A stretch of 64,000 bases of DNA, from NCBI GenBank assembly GCA_964016885.1, contig CAXHJY010001405.1, positions 41,063 to 105,062 of the forward strand, written 5' to 3'. Made by a program: the position numbers and the translations under genes. The notes under the pieces were generated by a model. That model was not told where the DNA came from. It ran no database searches and was given only the letters and a program-made list of their open reading frames with translations. This document shows, piece by piece, positions 3,166 to 60,076 of the stretch. The stretch comes from Eledone cirrhosa (Eukaryota). Position 1 is the first letter of the stretch, and each line of letters opens with the position of its first letter.

Positions 3166-3482
3166 ATTGTTATGACAATCTATTAATCAACTTCTCACCT
3201 GGAACAGTAAATTATTTAGGAAACCAATGAATGTGTGTGCATATATATATATATATATATATATATATATATATATATATATTGTTATACTTGGGGAGGG
3301 TCGTATTTGCGTAATATTGCCAGAATTAATAACAGAACACACTCACTGTTTGGTTGGTTTCCGCTTCTCACTGTCTTTTATATCTGCGATCTAACTTACT
3401 CGGTCCTCAATGTTGCCATTGACTGACCGACGGTCAAAAATAATACAGATACAATATAGACACAAACACATATATATAGTTT

Positions 3483-3525
3483 ACATAAATCTTTCGTTGC
3501 ACATCTGCAACATCGTCAGTGGTGT
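3483..3525 (-). ncRNA. Degenerate type I hammerhead ribozyme in the Penelope pLTR
   Basis: Minus strand: acacca CTGACGA t gttgca-gatg-tgcaac GAAA gatt TA tgt. Core and stem II are clear; stems I and III are weak. Confidence 0.6.
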
Positions 3526-3801
3526 TATATTTTTTTTTTCCTCCTGTTGTGTTGTATGTCTACGCCATTTTTTATTCAGTCTGTCTATATATTTATTTAT
3601 TTATTTGCTTGTTTGTTTATTTTATTTTGTCTTCTTTGCGCATGCGTTTGCGTGTGTGTATAGTGTTATGTGTGTTGTGTGACTAGTGTGTATAGTGTTG
3701 TGTCTGCTGGGTGACTAGTGTGTGTTTATGTGCTTGTTGTTATTGTGCTTGTGTATGTATTTATTTATCTTATTTTATTTTATTTTATTTTATTTACTTA
3801 T

Positions 3802-4712
3802 TTATACTTCTCTTAGGTCAGTGTTGTTTGTTTGGGTGTTGTTGTTGTTCCACTCATTCTTTCTGTTTAGCTTTGGTCTTCTAATTTCTATTTCACTGGC
3901 CTCTCTGATTTGCCTATCTGCTGGGTCATTCCTATGTTTAGATATTATTCTAATTTCTATGTTGTCTATGTTACCGTCATCTTGTTGTCTAGCATGTTCA
4001 TAGAGTACTGACCCGTTTTTTCGTCCTTTTAGTTCCCCCCAGTGTTGGTCTATCCTTTCACCTATGCTACGAGCTGTCTCACCTATGTATGTTGTTGTCA
4101 TGTTTCTGCAAGTACCCTCTGTACATCTTATGCTATAGACTACGTTTCTAGTTTTACAGTTTATCCGGGGGTTCACCTTACATATGATACATTCCTATTG
4201 GTACAGTGGGTTTTCTTAAAAGGGTAGGTTTTGCTGATCAGGGATTTTATGGTGGTTCCTGGCTTTTCTACCACCTTTATTTTTAAGTGGGTCTTTCTCA
4301 GGGCCTTTCTACACTGGTTAATTAATTTCCCTCCAGGGGTGGCGTCCACAAACATGACACTCTGATATCTCTGGTTGTCGTACCATGATGTGGCCTTCCC
4401 TATCTTATGTCTAGCCCTATCTAAGCTATTCCATGATTTGCTCCTGTATAGTGGGCAAATTCCTTTCATGTCCAGTTCTATGAGGGTCTTATACTTTTCC
4501 ATGGCTCCTTCGTATACTCTGACTCTGTCTCTTTGGTTGTAGCCAGAGAACTGCATGCGGTTGATGAAGTGTTGGATGTGTCTTTCCATTTCTGTTGGGT
4601 CGCACATGCTGGACACATTCTTCATCACTCGTACCAAATCTGCGATCAGAATATTAAACTTAGCACTACTGGACATTGCTGAGTTTTTGAGTATCAGGTA
4701 TTTGGAGGCCAT
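3802..4712 (-). pseudogene. Penelope-like RT C-terminus/GIY-YIG ORF remnant with one frameshift near 4190
   Basis: Correcting the frameshift gives HCTNRxCIICKVNPRINCKTRNVVY, a Cys-rich linker before the GIY-YIG domain. The RT catalytic core is absent. Confidence 0.85.
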
Positions 4713-4749
4713 GGGTTTAGCATAGTGTGAGTGGAGAATTTGGGCTCTC

Positions 4750-5285
4750 TCGTCTATAGTGTTTATCTACCTCTTATCTATTTTTTATCTATCTCTATCT
4801 CTTAACTTGTGCCCATCCGTCTATGATATGTTATTTGTATTAGTGTATACTGTATGTGTTGCATACGGGTGCTTGTGTGTAGGTGCATGCGGGTGCTCAT
4901 GCTTATGCGTATACTTGTATGTAGCTGTATGTTAACGGAACCCTGCCCAACTGTGAGTGATAACATTTTTATTTTAATTTTTATTTTACTCTTTTCTTAT
5001 TTTACTCCTTTTACTTTACTCTTTAAACTCCTCCCAACTTATGGTATCCCCACATATATTCTTCTGTTTTGGCTTTGTCAATCCTTGTATACTATGTATT
5101 TACTCTTTATGCTCTTAAGAGTCCCACTTCTAGTGTGGACGAAACACTGTTAGCAATTAAAGATATACCTATGTTCTAAGCGCTCTTTGTTGTTAATTGT
5201 ATTACGGTTCTGTCCTCTGACATTGACCTAACCATATACTGCCTATTTGATAAGTAGAGTGTTACACACTCCCTATTCTCTCCCT
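4750..5285 (+). mobile_element. Non-coding Penelope-type pLTR fragment with a mutated hammerhead (5110-5155)
   Basis: tgct CTTAAGA gtcccac-ttcta-gtgtggac GAAA cactg TT agca. G5 is replaced by T. The fragment ends at (TA)n; its left boundary is approximate. Confidence 0.55.
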
Positions 5286-5940
5286 TATATATATATATAT
5301 ATGTATATATGTATATATATATGTATATAAGTATATATGTATATATGTATATATATATGTATATATATGTATATATATGTATATATATATGTATATATAT
5401 GTATATGTATATATATATATATATATGTATATATATGTATATATATGTATATATATATATATATATGTATATATATATATATATATGTATATATATGTAT
5501 ATATATGTATATATGTATATATGTATATATATGTATATATATATATATGTATATATGTATATATATATATATATATATATGTATATATGTATATATATAT
5601 GTATATATATATATGTATATATATATATGTATATGTATATATATATATGTATATATATATATACATATATATATGTATATATGTATATATATATATGTAT
5701 ATATATGTATATATATATATGTATATATATATATATATGTATATATATGTATATATATATATGTATATATATATATATGTATATATATATATATATGTAT
5801 ATATATATATATGTATATATATATATGTATATATATATATATGTATATATATATATATGTATATATGTATATATGTATATATATATATGTATATATATAT
5901 ATATGTATATATATATATATGTATATATGTATATGTATAT
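5286..5940. repeat. (TA)n microsatellite with TG interruptions
   Basis: Read directly from the sequence. Confidence 0.97.
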
Positions 5941-57830: not shown

Positions 57831-58056
57831 CACAGTAATTTAGTAAAACACATATTGATACAGTAAAACACACAGTAATATAGTAAAACACATATTGATA
57901 CGGTAAAACACACAGTAATATAGTAAAACACATATTGATACAGTAAAACACACAGTAATATAGTAAAACACATATTGATACAGTAAAACACACAGTAATA
58001 TAGTAAAACACATATTGATACAGTAAAACACATTGATAGAGTAAAACACACAGTCA
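57831..58056. repeat. 40-bp minisatellite (two related 20-bp halves), ~5 copies, decaying to ~58690
   Basis: TAGTAAAACACATATTGATA-CAGTAAAACACACAGTAATA. Confidence 0.92.
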
Positions 58057-58244
58057 TATAGCAAAAACAGCATAAAACAGATCTTCACAGCAATATAGTA
58101 AAAACAGTTTAGGAAGCAGACTTGCAACAGCAAAATAGTAAAAACTGTTTAGAAAATAGGCTTACACAGCAATATAGTAAAAGCAGATTAGAAAACAGAT
58201 CTTCACATAAAGATCATAAAAACAGTTTAGAAAAAAGACCTTTA

Positions 58245-58581
58245 CATCATCATCATCATTTTACGTCCACTTTTCCCTGCTTGCAAGGGTGGGACGGGAA
58301 CTGATTCTGGCTTGATTTCTACAGCTGGATGCCCTTCCTAACACCAACCTCATTTACAGTGAGTGCTGGGTGCTTTTTTGCCATGGCACCTCCACGACCA
58401 CTTTGCAGTGGAATGATAGGGACCCCAGTCCTATCATCTCATTTCTACAGCTGAGTAAACTGGAGCAATGTGAAATAAAGTGTCTTGCACAAGGAAACAA
58501 CACATCACCCGGTCTGAGAATTGAACTCGCAACCTTTCGATTGCAAGGCCAATGCTCTAACCACTAAGCCATGTGCCTCCA
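58245..58581 (-). mobile_element. tRNA/CORE-like/RTE-tail SINE
   Basis: Same family as 28181-28526; ACATCAT on both flanks is a possible target-site duplication. Confidence 0.9.
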
Positions 58582-58769
58582 CATCATGATGATAGAAACA
58601 GATTAGACAACAGATATACACACCAGGATAGTAAAAACTTTCCCAGCAAAGTAAAAACAGTTTAGAAAGTCGATCTTCAAAACAGTATAGTAGTTATTCA
58701 ATGGTTATGTAGCAATGAAGACAAAACTAATTTAATGAAGCTATGTGACTAATTCAAAGAGAAACTTAC

Positions 58770-58921
58770 CCGACACAGATGTTGGATTAAAGACAATTTC
58801 TCGTAGCTGTTCACACAAGCTAACTAAATTACATACAAGTAGTTGGGTTTTCACATCTTTAGCATTGAATGGTAGACTGCAAGTGGGGCAGTTCCTGCTA
58901 ATCCCTTTATCTAAACATTGC
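58770..58921 (-). CDS. BARD1: Host exon encoding the C-terminal half of a RING finger plus the following helix; BARD1-like
   Basis: tttttccacag|G...TCGG|gtaagt; 152 nt, phase 2 to phase 1. QCLDKGISRNCPTCSLPFNAKDVKTQLLVCNLVSLCEQLREIV resembles human BARD1 [43 protein letters not shown], whose exon 3 has the same phases as I recall. Confidence 0.7.
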
Positions 58922-59139
58922 CTGTGGAAAAATATTAAAACAATAAAAATAAGCAAATAAGAATGTTTTCTTTGTTTTAATTATTTTTTTCATGAGAGAG
59001 ATAACAGGTGTATATGCAACATTAATTAACTCTTAACATCCTGTAATGCAATACAATGGGAGGAAGCATAATATCACTGATGATGTCATAGGCATGTGGC
59101 GAAAGAACTCTAAGAGACTATATATATATATATATAGTA

Positions 59140-60076
59140 ATAATAATAGTAATAATAAATTTGAAGACTAAAATCCAAAGAGGGCTCGATAAGGATAAAT
59201 ATATATCAAATATATAAGAACCGTAGAGCAAATATTTATTAAAATAACAGATTAAAGTTTAAGCAAAGAATCGCTGCTTTCACCCTTAACGGGATCTTCT
59301 GAAACTAACAAAGTCAATCTGTAAACACAGCTGTGGATATTTCAAAAAAACGTTGCAACCGGAGGAAGACAGGAAGACGATACTTTGGTTCGTGGAAACG
59401 TTTGCTGGCAAAGAACGGGAAAAAACGAATATAATACATCATTAATAGGAGCGGTGAAAAACAATTACACGCAAAGACAGAACCACGTTTATGGTATAAA
59501 AGAAGTCGTAGACTAATGTTCTCTTTGGTGGTTCATAGAGACGTTCTCTGGCAATGAACGAAAAAAACGAAGATAATACGTCATATGTGGAGCATGGAGA
59601 ACAATTGCACGCAAAGACAAAACCACGTAAATGGTATAGCTGAAGTCGGAGACTAAAGTTCTAATTAGGAAACCGAAAAAATCTCCGCTTCAGAGTTAAG
59701 AATAAAGTAAATAAAATACAATACAGAGGTAATAGAAATTAAATAAAGACATACACGCATGCGTACATACACAAGCATACGCAAAAACACTTGCCATAAT
59801 TATACAAAACCACGCACATATAAATATTCTGTCTTTGCGTGTAATTGTTTTTCACCGCTCCTATTAATGACGCATTATATTCGTTATTTCCCGTTCTTTG
59901 CCAGCGAACGTTTCCACGAACCAAAGTATCGTCTTCCTGTCTTCCTCTGGTTGCAACGATTTTTGAAATATCCACATCTGCGTTTACAGATTGACTTTGT
60001 TAGTTTCAGAAGATCCCGTTAAGGGTGAAAGCAGCGATTCTTTGCTTAAACTTTAATCTGTTATTTTAATAAATAT
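59140..60076. mobile_element. Non-coding element with ~250-bp inverted arms and a hammerhead-like relic
   Basis: 59232-59482 is the approximate reverse complement of 59827-60076. CAGAAGA tccc-gttaa-gggt GAAA at 60007-60030, mirrored in the other arm. TA flanks. Confidence 0.6.

Follow-up and report, generated by a model that had tools for sequence, protein, structure and literature searches.

Truncated Penelope-like elements and non-coding retrozymes in Eledone cirrhosa share a two-ended insertion pattern beside (TA)n

The 64,000-nt stretch of the Eledone cirrhosa genome analysed here (contig CAXHJY010001405.1 of assembly GCA_964016885.1; hereafter the window, whose positions serve as coordinates) is best explained as a pile-up of independent insertions adjoining (TA)n. 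It holds seven truncated ends of Penelope-like elements (PLEs), two tandem retrozymes and one further fragment (Table 1). Six of the eight repeats listed by an earlier, sequence-only reading are 5'-truncated PLE ends with ORF-bearing relatives elsewhere in the genome, three of the Hydra clade (B, D, F) and three canonical (A, C, E), and the seventh PLE end is an additional one at 35209. Only the 310-nt and 481-nt tandem units among the eight look non-coding, and judged by sequence these are non-LTR retrozymes with predicted self-cutting RNA folds. PLE ends and retrozymes alike were likely inserted by the Penelope reverse transcriptase-endonuclease; the two retrozymes show the same two-ended insertion pattern as the PLEs and were therefore likely copied by that enzyme. 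We hold this account as a whole, in which PLE machinery inserts both truncated PLE ends and non-coding retrozymes, to be probable. All its ingredients have been published before: the hammerheads, TA targets, inverted arms and tails of PLEs, and retrozymes that travel as their passengers. Sharper than in print are the near-fixed pattern of short and long ends and the haplotype shared between arms, retrozymes included.

Table 1. Features of the window discussed in the text, in window positions
Feature	Position	Strand	Description
A	3283..4767	-	5'-truncated canonical PLE; hammerhead core 3519-3513; end at the family's short site
B	4762..5285	+	pLTR of Hydra-clade PLE; hammerhead core 5114-5120 with private G>T; end at long site
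(TA)n landing zone, example	5286..8406	no strand	
G310	5941..6460	-	310-nt tandem retrozyme, 1.6 units plus short inverted stub; core 6134-6128; predicted cut after 6104
Similar (TA)n arrays	17716-18792, 27287-30257, 35295-36381		
G481	18793..20127	+	481-nt tandem retrozyme, 2.6 units; cores 18896, 19377 (U16.1>C), 19858
C	24961..25361	+	two-armed canonical PLE 3' end; degenerate hammerhead at 25138, CCGTTGA core family-wide
D	26819..27286	+	two-armed Hydra-clade PLE 3' end; hairpins, without hammerhead
E	34305..34446	-	canonical PLE 3' end; U3-A8 hammerhead at 34413
I	34475..35297	+	two-armed Hydra-clade PLE 3' end; canonical-core hammerhead 35209; unlisted by the earlier reading
H	59048..59120	+	fragment of older family related to A; hammerhead core 59077; unlisted by the earlier reading
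F	59140..60076	-	two-armed Hydra-clade PLE 3' end; U4>A hammerhead fold at 59301(-) and 60007(+)

All eight listed repeats do abut (TA)n, as had been claimed. This target is not specific to hammerhead-bearing elements, since 13 of 13 hand-picked ends of ordinary LINE copies in the window also touch TA runs. Because empty target sites were not seen, we can only infer that the TA target was there beforehand. The surrounding sequences are also mutually unrelated, as had been noted by eye: an all-against-all comparison gave E values of at least 0.027, from AT-rich scraps only, the exception being 59077 (H), which is 75% alike to 3519 (A).

Families B, D, F and I appear to belong to the Hydra clade by its diagnostic motifs, namely RWK/RWR, DKT and a CxCX5C linker (Craig et al. 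2021, PMC8557442). Each carries, by motif, a reverse transcriptase (RT) and then a C-terminal GIY-YIG in one unit; RWK occurs in I and RWR in B, D and F, and both DKT and CxCX5C are present in all four. Pfam and PDB searches did not recognise these ORFs. Their neighbours in an atlas carry GIY-YIG or RVT_1 at minority shares, an observation of use as a lead only. An ORF lies upstream of the 3' end in copies of D (L263) and F (L258), and a copy of B (L111) has an 831-residue frame directly behind the pLTR. Family D is represented by 32,886 exact matches genome-wide, as counted with the pattern of a single 28-mer. Family I is very young, with 40 of 40 scored matches 100% identical, and the predicted cut of its hammerhead falls after 35254. 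The pLTR hammerhead is canonical in B and I, has U4>A in F and is absent from D.

The canonical families A and C possess an RT, a linker of the CX2-5CxxC type (off strict spacing in C), a C-terminal GIY-YIG and a hammerhead-bearing 3' repeat; the same parts were found for E, from a single decayed ORF-linked copy. The window copy of A comprises the RT thumb, a CX4CxxC linker, the GIY-YIG nuclease and the 3' UTR, and another copy (L260) has a 645-residue frame with the RT core. In a copy of C (L255) the ORF upstream of the 3' end matches Pfam RVT_1 and GIY-YIG. Finer clade names for A, C and E (Neptune, Nematis, Penelope/Poseidon) are leads from the linker motif alone. No ORF-bearing copy of H was found in the genome search.

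The inverted arms claimed for six elements are complete at 18793, 24963, 26820 and 59140. None exists at 34308, the 310-nt element is limited to a short stub, and the supposed arm at 3283/5285 is a join of two different families, A and B having been joined back-to-back via short microhomology. We rejected the possibility that 34308 and 35209 form a two-family chimera, as I has its own inverted arm.

A strict-core type I hammerhead descriptor matched four sites in the window and none in 10 shuffles; a descriptor also admitting U3-A8 matched six, against none in 19 of 20 shuffles and two in the remaining one. With two core mismatches permitted, shuffles yield 0-7 matches, and 25138 is therefore at chance level by structure alone. 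The coordinates of the earlier reading are right, its motifs as a set exceed chance, and at family level a hammerhead fits five of its eight sites. At 6134(-) there is a textbook minimal type I hammerhead with an ACGCGT palindrome, and 18896(+) and 19858(+) are intact, with U16.1>C in the intervening copy at 19377. The U3-A8 core of 34413(-) recurs in 19 of 19 copies. The CTGACGA core is intact at 3519(-), where stems I and III are irregular and neither descriptor finds a match; it is seen in 13 of 14 other copies of A, and the core tallies for A and H from the family-wide count include mis-anchored rows. At 5114(+) the change G5>T is private to the window copy, with CTGAAGA in 19 of 19 others. 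Two further listed sites show family-wide core changes, U4>A at 60007(+) and U4>C plus A6>U at 25138(+), each tallied in 18 of 19 copies, and stem III of the latter is merely ATAT. The region 27101-27194 was rejected as a hammerhead: it is a GAAA hairpin in which no CUGANGA, no NUH, no cleavage site and no match at two or fewer core mismatches was found, and the other D copies viewed likewise have no core. To the list we add 59077(+) and 35209(+), the best-scoring motif in the window.

The earlier reading was sound in seeing PLE-type elements that are associated with TA and bear minimal type I hammerheads, and in expecting a large diversity of families: 420 kb of random genomic sequence contains 22 motifs (roughly one per 19 kb) against 0-3 in shuffles. 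The stem covariation it proposed to look for is also there. In all, 91% of cells are paired, compared with 27-49% in slid controls; 8 of 14 stem pairs show two-sided change, C3-G8/U3-A8 occurs in 9/11 sequences, and no shuffle out of 500 attains the covariation score. Retrozyme hammerheads appear to be kept under selection. The best 150 matches of an Rfam scan (238 lower ones exist besides) include no hammerhead model; almost all are microRNA models placed on TA runs and palindromes, which makes the scan uninformative.

In both retrozymes, two or more successive tandem units contain a type I hammerhead, and neither coding capacity nor LTR structure is present. The G481 unit exceeds by a little the 150-450 range given in the 2020 paper and falls within the 51-972 range given in the 2026 preprint (both cited below); the window copy ends at unit position 274, and its inverted arm at position 171. 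A linked ORF was absent at 52 of 52 G481 loci, 10 of which have PLE protein matches nearby, and at one locus (L317) the element borders on the central part of an older Hydra 3' UTR. No linked ORF was seen in the G310 arrays viewed (19 arrays typed, with flanks viewed for most). Diverged sister families of both, at 72-85% identity, are also tandem, and no linked ORF was seen for these either. The G481 family and many relatives occur among the contigs of three runs of unrecorded type, where depth is not copy number and says nothing about expression. The all-against-all comparison revealed no similarity between either retrozyme and any PLE end, and no parent pLTR was found; this missing sequence link counts against their being mobilised by Penelope. 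The arrays are dispersed and approximately 99% identical between loci, and both arms can be multi-unit (for example 21+7, 17+11 and 15+7 units), truncated at random on the inner side and ending exactly at the fixed sites. The G481 loci mostly have 1-3 units with a partial 5' unit. Periodic variants in three arrays (J117, L128, L150) suggest block duplication. In L120 and L121, the two arms both carry private changes in their 3'-terminal unit, and because of these two loci we doubt that a monomer circle was the sole template.

A near-absolute regularity concerns the ends. Among 131 two-armed insertions surveyed from nine families, retrozymes included, 115 combine a short with a long end, one is short plus short, one is long plus long and 14 were unclassified; one site per end is therefore used in 115 of the 117 classifiable cases. 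TATA or ATAT follows 80 of 84 G481 arm ends, and single-armed G481 copies stop at either site. The short sites are AT-rich in all nine families, and folding of the tails revealed no structure shared across families, only the G481 tail standing out (z -2.9). In 28 of the 115 insertions, 13 of them in non-tandem families, the short arm goes past the 5' limit of the long arm, and in L182 the two arms do not overlap at all. Both arms share the haplotype of their locus, which speaks for a common template: the arms of G310 are identical in 11 of 12 two-armed loci, compared with 0 of 132 cross-locus pairs, and D arms differ at 0.025 per site within an insertion versus 0.088 between insertions (p<=0.0005). 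The same test gave p=0.002 for C and no significant difference for E (p=0.12, n=8) and F (p=0.61, n=5). We rejected the view that the ribozyme cut defines the ends of the elements, as these ends lie downstream of it, by 139 and 163 nt in G310 and by 96 and 199 nt in G481. Nor are 5' ends enriched at the predicted cut in E, F and I, where their use as marks of in vivo cleavage is unsupported; they are weakly enriched in G481 (7 of 53, p=0.008, in an interval picked after part of the data had been seen).

In what we consider the best reading, one RNA would be primed twice by the PLE machinery, once per cut strand. What we observe are copies of the families, links to ORFs, 3' ends fixed at a short and a long site with one of each per two-armed insertion, and a haplotype common to both arms; from this we infer the following steps. 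A PLE protein, probably a dimer, would cut both strands of a TA run and bind one RNA near its tail. Each cut strand would prime reverse transcription, one at the short site and the other at the long site, and microhomology would link the two cDNAs head to head after they had stopped at random or at the RNA 5' end. In D and E there are many short copies, which begin just behind a TATA-like box and so probably derive from the 5' end of a pLTR transcript. G310 and G481, which seem to retain both start sites and a selected hammerhead without an ORF, would be copied in trans from multimeric or circular RNA; the hammerhead would yield monomers and circles, and insertion itself would not need it. A more specific version is that PLEs integrate by asymmetric twin priming, in which a dimer holding one RNA would fix one short and one long end per two-armed insertion, and that G310, G481 and their sisters, as long-lived lineages whose parent pLTR is gone from the genome, hijack that step. 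We give this version an even chance. If true, it would supply a direct integration footprint of animal retrozymes moving by PLE machinery.

The inverted arm might instead arise when the first cDNA, or an antisense template, folds back or primes itself, with the families as in our main reading and the short end trimmed later by endonuclease or by annealing to the TA target. Such self-priming (PMC3846280) and endonuclease-mediated resolution (PMC8557442) are in print, and they account equally well for the one-short-one-long rule and the shared haplotype; the private changes in L120 and L121 and the AT-rich short sites also favour them. However, fold-back has difficulty with the 13 non-tandem cases in which the short arm exceeds the long arm, some of them without overlap (L182), with single-armed copies ending at the short site, and with the two RT start sites demonstrated in vitro (PMC11167929). 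This case against fold-back is weakened by the fact that palindromes can lose centres and arrays can duplicate locally (J117, L128, L150). We think fold-back unlikely, but the most serious competitor to priming of one RNA on both cut strands.

Other explanations concern the elements themselves. The G310 and G481 arrays could be satellites, in which a single pLTR-like unit inserts and unequal crossover then multiplies it on the spot, without a multi-unit RNA as template. The 2026 preprint (bioRxiv 10.64898/2026.07.22.740005) favours this reading, and the periodic recurrence of variants in three arrays points the same way, yet dispersed arrays at approximately 99% identity, with several units in both arms, exact fixed ends and random inner truncations, make it improbable, as do the mostly 1-3 units and partial 5' unit of G481 loci. 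Far harder to accept is the sequence-only reading's own proposal of a radiation of seven non-coding ribozyme elements invisible to ORF-based annotation. Seven of the eight repeats indeed have no ORF inside the window, hammerhead density is high genome-wide, and two families with their sister families do look non-coding. Nevertheless, five of these seven (5114, 25138, 27101, 34413 and 60007) proved to be PLE 3' ends or pLTRs once an ORF was located upstream in other copies, and one of the seven lacks a hammerhead. In B, C, D and F, copies that run continuously from ORF to end with no TA run in between rule the proposal out. The outcome that reading had itself named as fatal to its novelty, all elements being simple truncated PLE ends, is largely what we find; the exceptions are G310 and G481, the only two left as non-coding.

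Given that the component parts were already known, the value of these observations is mechanistic. A near-absolute one-short-one-long rule extends over nine unrelated families, and the retrozymes obey it too; the insertion footprint is unusually clean and probably shows how PLE-type insertion runs. Young, haplotype-marked arrays allow testing of how retrozymes enter genomes, and of why PLE insertions have an inverted arm while their tail is confined to one end. Alongside non-coding families that keep their hammerheads, apparently under selection, there are PLE families that have been very successful with an altered (C, F) or absent (D) one; this agrees with the view that the ribozyme is more important to the passengers than to the PLE. 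Furthermore, the density of motifs makes this genome a rich source of natural hammerhead variants.

Comparison with known systems places most of these elements on familiar ground. Like the Hydra-clade PLEs of PMC8557442, families B, D, F and I have a C-terminal GIY-YIG, RWK/RWR, DKT and the CxCX5C linker, and they share insertion beside (TA)n, an inverted 5'-truncated copy and a tail at one end. Their tails are longer (72-89 nt versus 30-40), and the missing hammerhead of D and the fixed U4>A of F depart from that study, which describes canonical hammerheads as universal in Hydra. Families A, C and E resemble the canonical PLEs with minimal hammerheads, Neptune, Nematis and Penelope/Poseidon (Cervera and de la Pena 2014, PMC4209133), in their RT-linker-GIY-YIG order, minimal type I motif, extra base after A9 and palindromic stem III. 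A U3-A8 core was already reported there for Cercyon; unlike the elements of that study, C, although still a young family (98% identity), has the U4C/A6U core throughout.

G310 and G481 resemble animal non-LTR retrozymes (Cervera and de la Pena 2020, PMC7229834; Li, Clavereau and Pollet 2026, bioRxiv 10.64898/2026.07.22.740005) in having non-coding tandem units of low GC, one type I hammerhead per unit and PLEs in the same genome. The parts of those papers available to us argue from co-occurrence and pLTR similarity and do not describe a two-ended PLE integration signature; the preprint also reports that one of nine Xenopus dimers cleaved, so that the motif by itself does not guarantee cleavage. 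The parent pLTR of G310 and G481 was not found, and both show the full PLE integration signature of two fixed ends, inverted arms and TA flanks. A close mechanistic parallel is PAc, an Anolis Poseidon element for which dimerisation is predicted. In vitro it cuts and extends both strands, has two RT start sites, one on each side of the tail, and can dispense with its hammerhead (Frangieh et al. 2024, PMC11167929). No strand difference between its two start sites was seen in vitro, which counts against asymmetric twin priming. The nine families examined here appear to resemble PAc in two RT start sites that bound the tail, in the cutting and extension of both strands, in an AT-rich target and in a dispensable hammerhead; unlike PAc in vitro, their genomic two-armed insertions use one site per end.

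Each family has a pair of fixed 3' ends separated by 24-103 nt, here called the short and the long site. In two-armed insertions, where a copy and an inverted arm are joined head to head, one arm ends at each: of 131 such loci, most of them top search matches rather than a random draw, 115 are short+long, one is short/short, one is long/long, and in the other 14 an end lies away from both sites. In G310, a non-coding tandem retrozyme with 310-nt units, the two arms are identical within 11 of 12 insertions (the twelfth has one extra change) and in none of 132 pairs across loci. 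A haplotype common to both arms is significant for the Penelope-like element (PLE) families D and C; the same within- versus between-insertion test is not significant for E and F. Of 92 copies of D, 72 begin at 123-148, on or behind an initiator-like point that follows TATTTAAA by 25 nt; of 29 copies of E, 20 begin at 243-253, some 30 nt past TATAAAA. We read both clusters as putative transcription starts; pLTRs with TATA and initiator motifs have been described (PMC3846280).

The simplest account of this footprint is target-primed reverse transcription that uses one RNA twice, once per strand. Both target strands would be cut and each would prime reverse transcription, one strand starting at each of the two start sites on the same template, and the two cDNAs would then be end-joined. 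Fold-back copying of the inverted arm, trimmed afterwards, would give the same end rule and also a shared arm haplotype. Non-nested arms and single arms that end at the short site speak against it, although nesting could be masked where palindromes have lost their centres. The short arm extends further 5' than the long arm in 28 of 115. As to the template of the retrozymes, the findings are mixed. Units are almost uniform in arrays as long as 28 units (0.0006 differences per base), as a circular RNA template would give. At two loci (L120, L121), by contrast, the terminal unit carries private changes in both arms, which suggests a linear multimer, fold-back or later conversion, and periodic variants are a sign of local duplication.

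Two junctions involve more than one element. At window 4762-4767, A (canonical) is joined back to back to B (Hydra clade) through a short microhomology; A stops at its short and B at its long site, the arrangement found in two-armed insertions of a single family. This is the only cross-family join among nine families at the loci examined, and may have arisen by insertion of two RNAs or by a deletion between adjacent copies. At L341:3541 (G000:C3:29078040), an arm of G481, the retrozyme with 481-nt units, changes into another tandem repeat at a 13-nt shared stretch, which suggests template switching between RNAs.

The sequence-only reading had described up to eight unrelated hammerhead-bearing elements beside (TA)n, and took them for a radiation that ORF-based annotation would miss; the observation was largely right, the interpretation half right. 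Copies across the genome link A, B, C, D, E and F to PLE ORFs, and no ORF origin was seen for G481 or, in the arrays viewed, for G310. Family A has RT-thumb and GIY-YIG frames within the window and a 645-residue RT-EN frame at another locus (L260), B sits immediately ahead of an 831-residue ORF (L111), and PLE ORFs continue into the window sequences of C, D and F without a TA break (L255, L263 and L258). For I the continuity runs via a microsatellite-rich UTR (L295), and for E the link is seen in one decayed copy only (L240); H is older kin of A. Marks of the Hydra clade listed in PMC8557442 are present in B, D, F and I. Between its RT and nuclease, the Hydra-type ORF at L111:2123-4615 carries an asparagine-rich insert, reminiscent of the N-rich inserts of rotifer Penelope elements (PMC3846280). 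The repeats of the window have an octopus-like look. An Octopus vulgaris annotation holds 31 recently active PLE families, without the word ribozyme (PMC13282606), so the ORF-bearing families here may well be catalogued already, provided that this look reflects the lineage.

G310 has 166 exact 29-mer matches genome-wide (19 arrays typed). The 95 exact 26-mer matches of G481 group into 52 loci, all examined: none shows ORF descent, ten have PLE hits nearby and one adjoins an older Hydra UTR at its middle. Diverged sister families exist for both retrozymes; they too are tandem, and no linked ORF was seen in them. Stem covariation, whose absence would have refuted the sequence-only reading, was found in 20 G310-type motifs picked from 33 listed: 91% of cells are paired, 8 of 14 pairs have two-sided changes, and C3-G8 or U3-A8 occurs in all 20. 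No shuffle reached the covariation score, in a test inflated by the relatedness of the motifs, and slid controls were 27-49% paired; despite this relatedness and a structure drawn from the window copy, the 3-8 pair is specific. Within G310, 17 variant sites are array-wide; seven of them fall in the ribozyme, all outside its invariant core. These comparisons suggest a ribozyme under selection, with self-cleavage predicted.

All eight sites lie where the sequence-only reading placed them, but the list of cores or relics needs amending: 27101 (D) has neither a CUGANGA box nor NUH, and 35209(+) and 59077(+) were omitted. A strict type I descriptor finds four window motifs against none in 10 shuffles. 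The relaxed search that had been proposed also exceeds shuffles when U3-A8, a known active covariation (PMC3088659; PMC4209133), is admitted (six against none in 19 of 20); with two core mismatches allowed it gives nine against 0-7. Family cores are CTGAAGA in B (19/19 copies; the window copy is a private mutant), TTGAAAA in E (19/19), CTGAGGA in I (20/20), CAGAAGA in F (18/19), CCGTTGA in C (18/19) and CTGACGA in A (13/14 copies other than the window's). Changes at A6 reduce hammerhead activity (PMC3088659). Family I (L277) carries a second hammerhead-like copy, 83% identical, about 1.4 kb upstream in its UTR; F and E likewise have internal UTR duplications.

Across 42 random 10-kb stretches of this 3.0-Gb animal genome, the descriptor that admits U3-A8 detects 22 motifs, where 10 shuffles give 0-3, and 17 of the 22 have a TA run at most 300 nt downstream, against 28% of random positions. 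D has 32,886 exact 28-mer matches genome-wide. At L214-L253, L302-L303 and other loci there are several more hammerhead families, unrelated to these, whose stem III is palindromic or long (ACTAGT, ACTAATTAGT, ATGCAT and others); most lie no more than 300 nt from TA. TA serves as a general landing zone in this genome, LINEs included, since all 13 hand-picked LINE ends in the window touch TA runs too. LINE copies and long (TA)n arrays nest together in the window; of 19 frames tested, 9 have a Pfam RVT_1 or APE-type nuclease domain. At 39202-39329, two tail-to-tail LINE copies flank a single TA run, and the result is a (TGA)n-(TA)n-(TCA)n palindrome; here LINEs share the landing zones of PLEs. 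No hammerhead was found in the three groups of long tandem units; the first two, found at the 5' ends of RTE-like LINE ORFs, are possible promoter monomers.

Window features (lowest coordinate of each family copy, or span) and, per family, short+long insertions among two-armed insertions
Feature	Position	Tandem unit	Short+long
A	3283(-)		3/3
B	4762(+)		2/5
G310	5941(-)		12/12
G481	18793(+)		26/28
C	24961(+)		12/14
D	26819(+)		34/38
E	34305(-)		12/12
I	34475(+)		2/3
H	59048(+)		
F	59140(-)		12/16
RTE-like LINE ORF, PHD finger behind RT domain	8800-12201(-)		
RTE-like LINE ORF, PHD finger behind RT domain	39642-43115(-)		
RTE-like LINE ORF, PHD finger behind RT domain	45778-48900(+)		
Near-identical long tandem units	12199-17715	468 nt x 11.8	
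Near-identical long tandem units	43113-45505	about 553 nt	
Near-identical long tandem units	49206-50900	409 nt x 3.9	

The window elements belong to kinds already known. PLE hammerheads and their diversity within a genome are published (PMC4209133), as are TA targets, inverted copies, a tail at one end and non-autonomous PLEs (PMC8557442; PMC3846280), and retrozymes with PLEs as likely helpers (PMC7229834; bioRxiv 10.64898/2026.07.22.740005, the latter mainly on vertebrates). In the literature searched, with most subscription papers and Repbase outside it, we found no description of cephalopod retrozymes or of a one-site-per-end rule with same-template arms. As far as that literature goes, the insertion footprint is sharper than in print and directly testable, and the account of priming from both strands would extend the in vitro result for PAc (PMC11167929).
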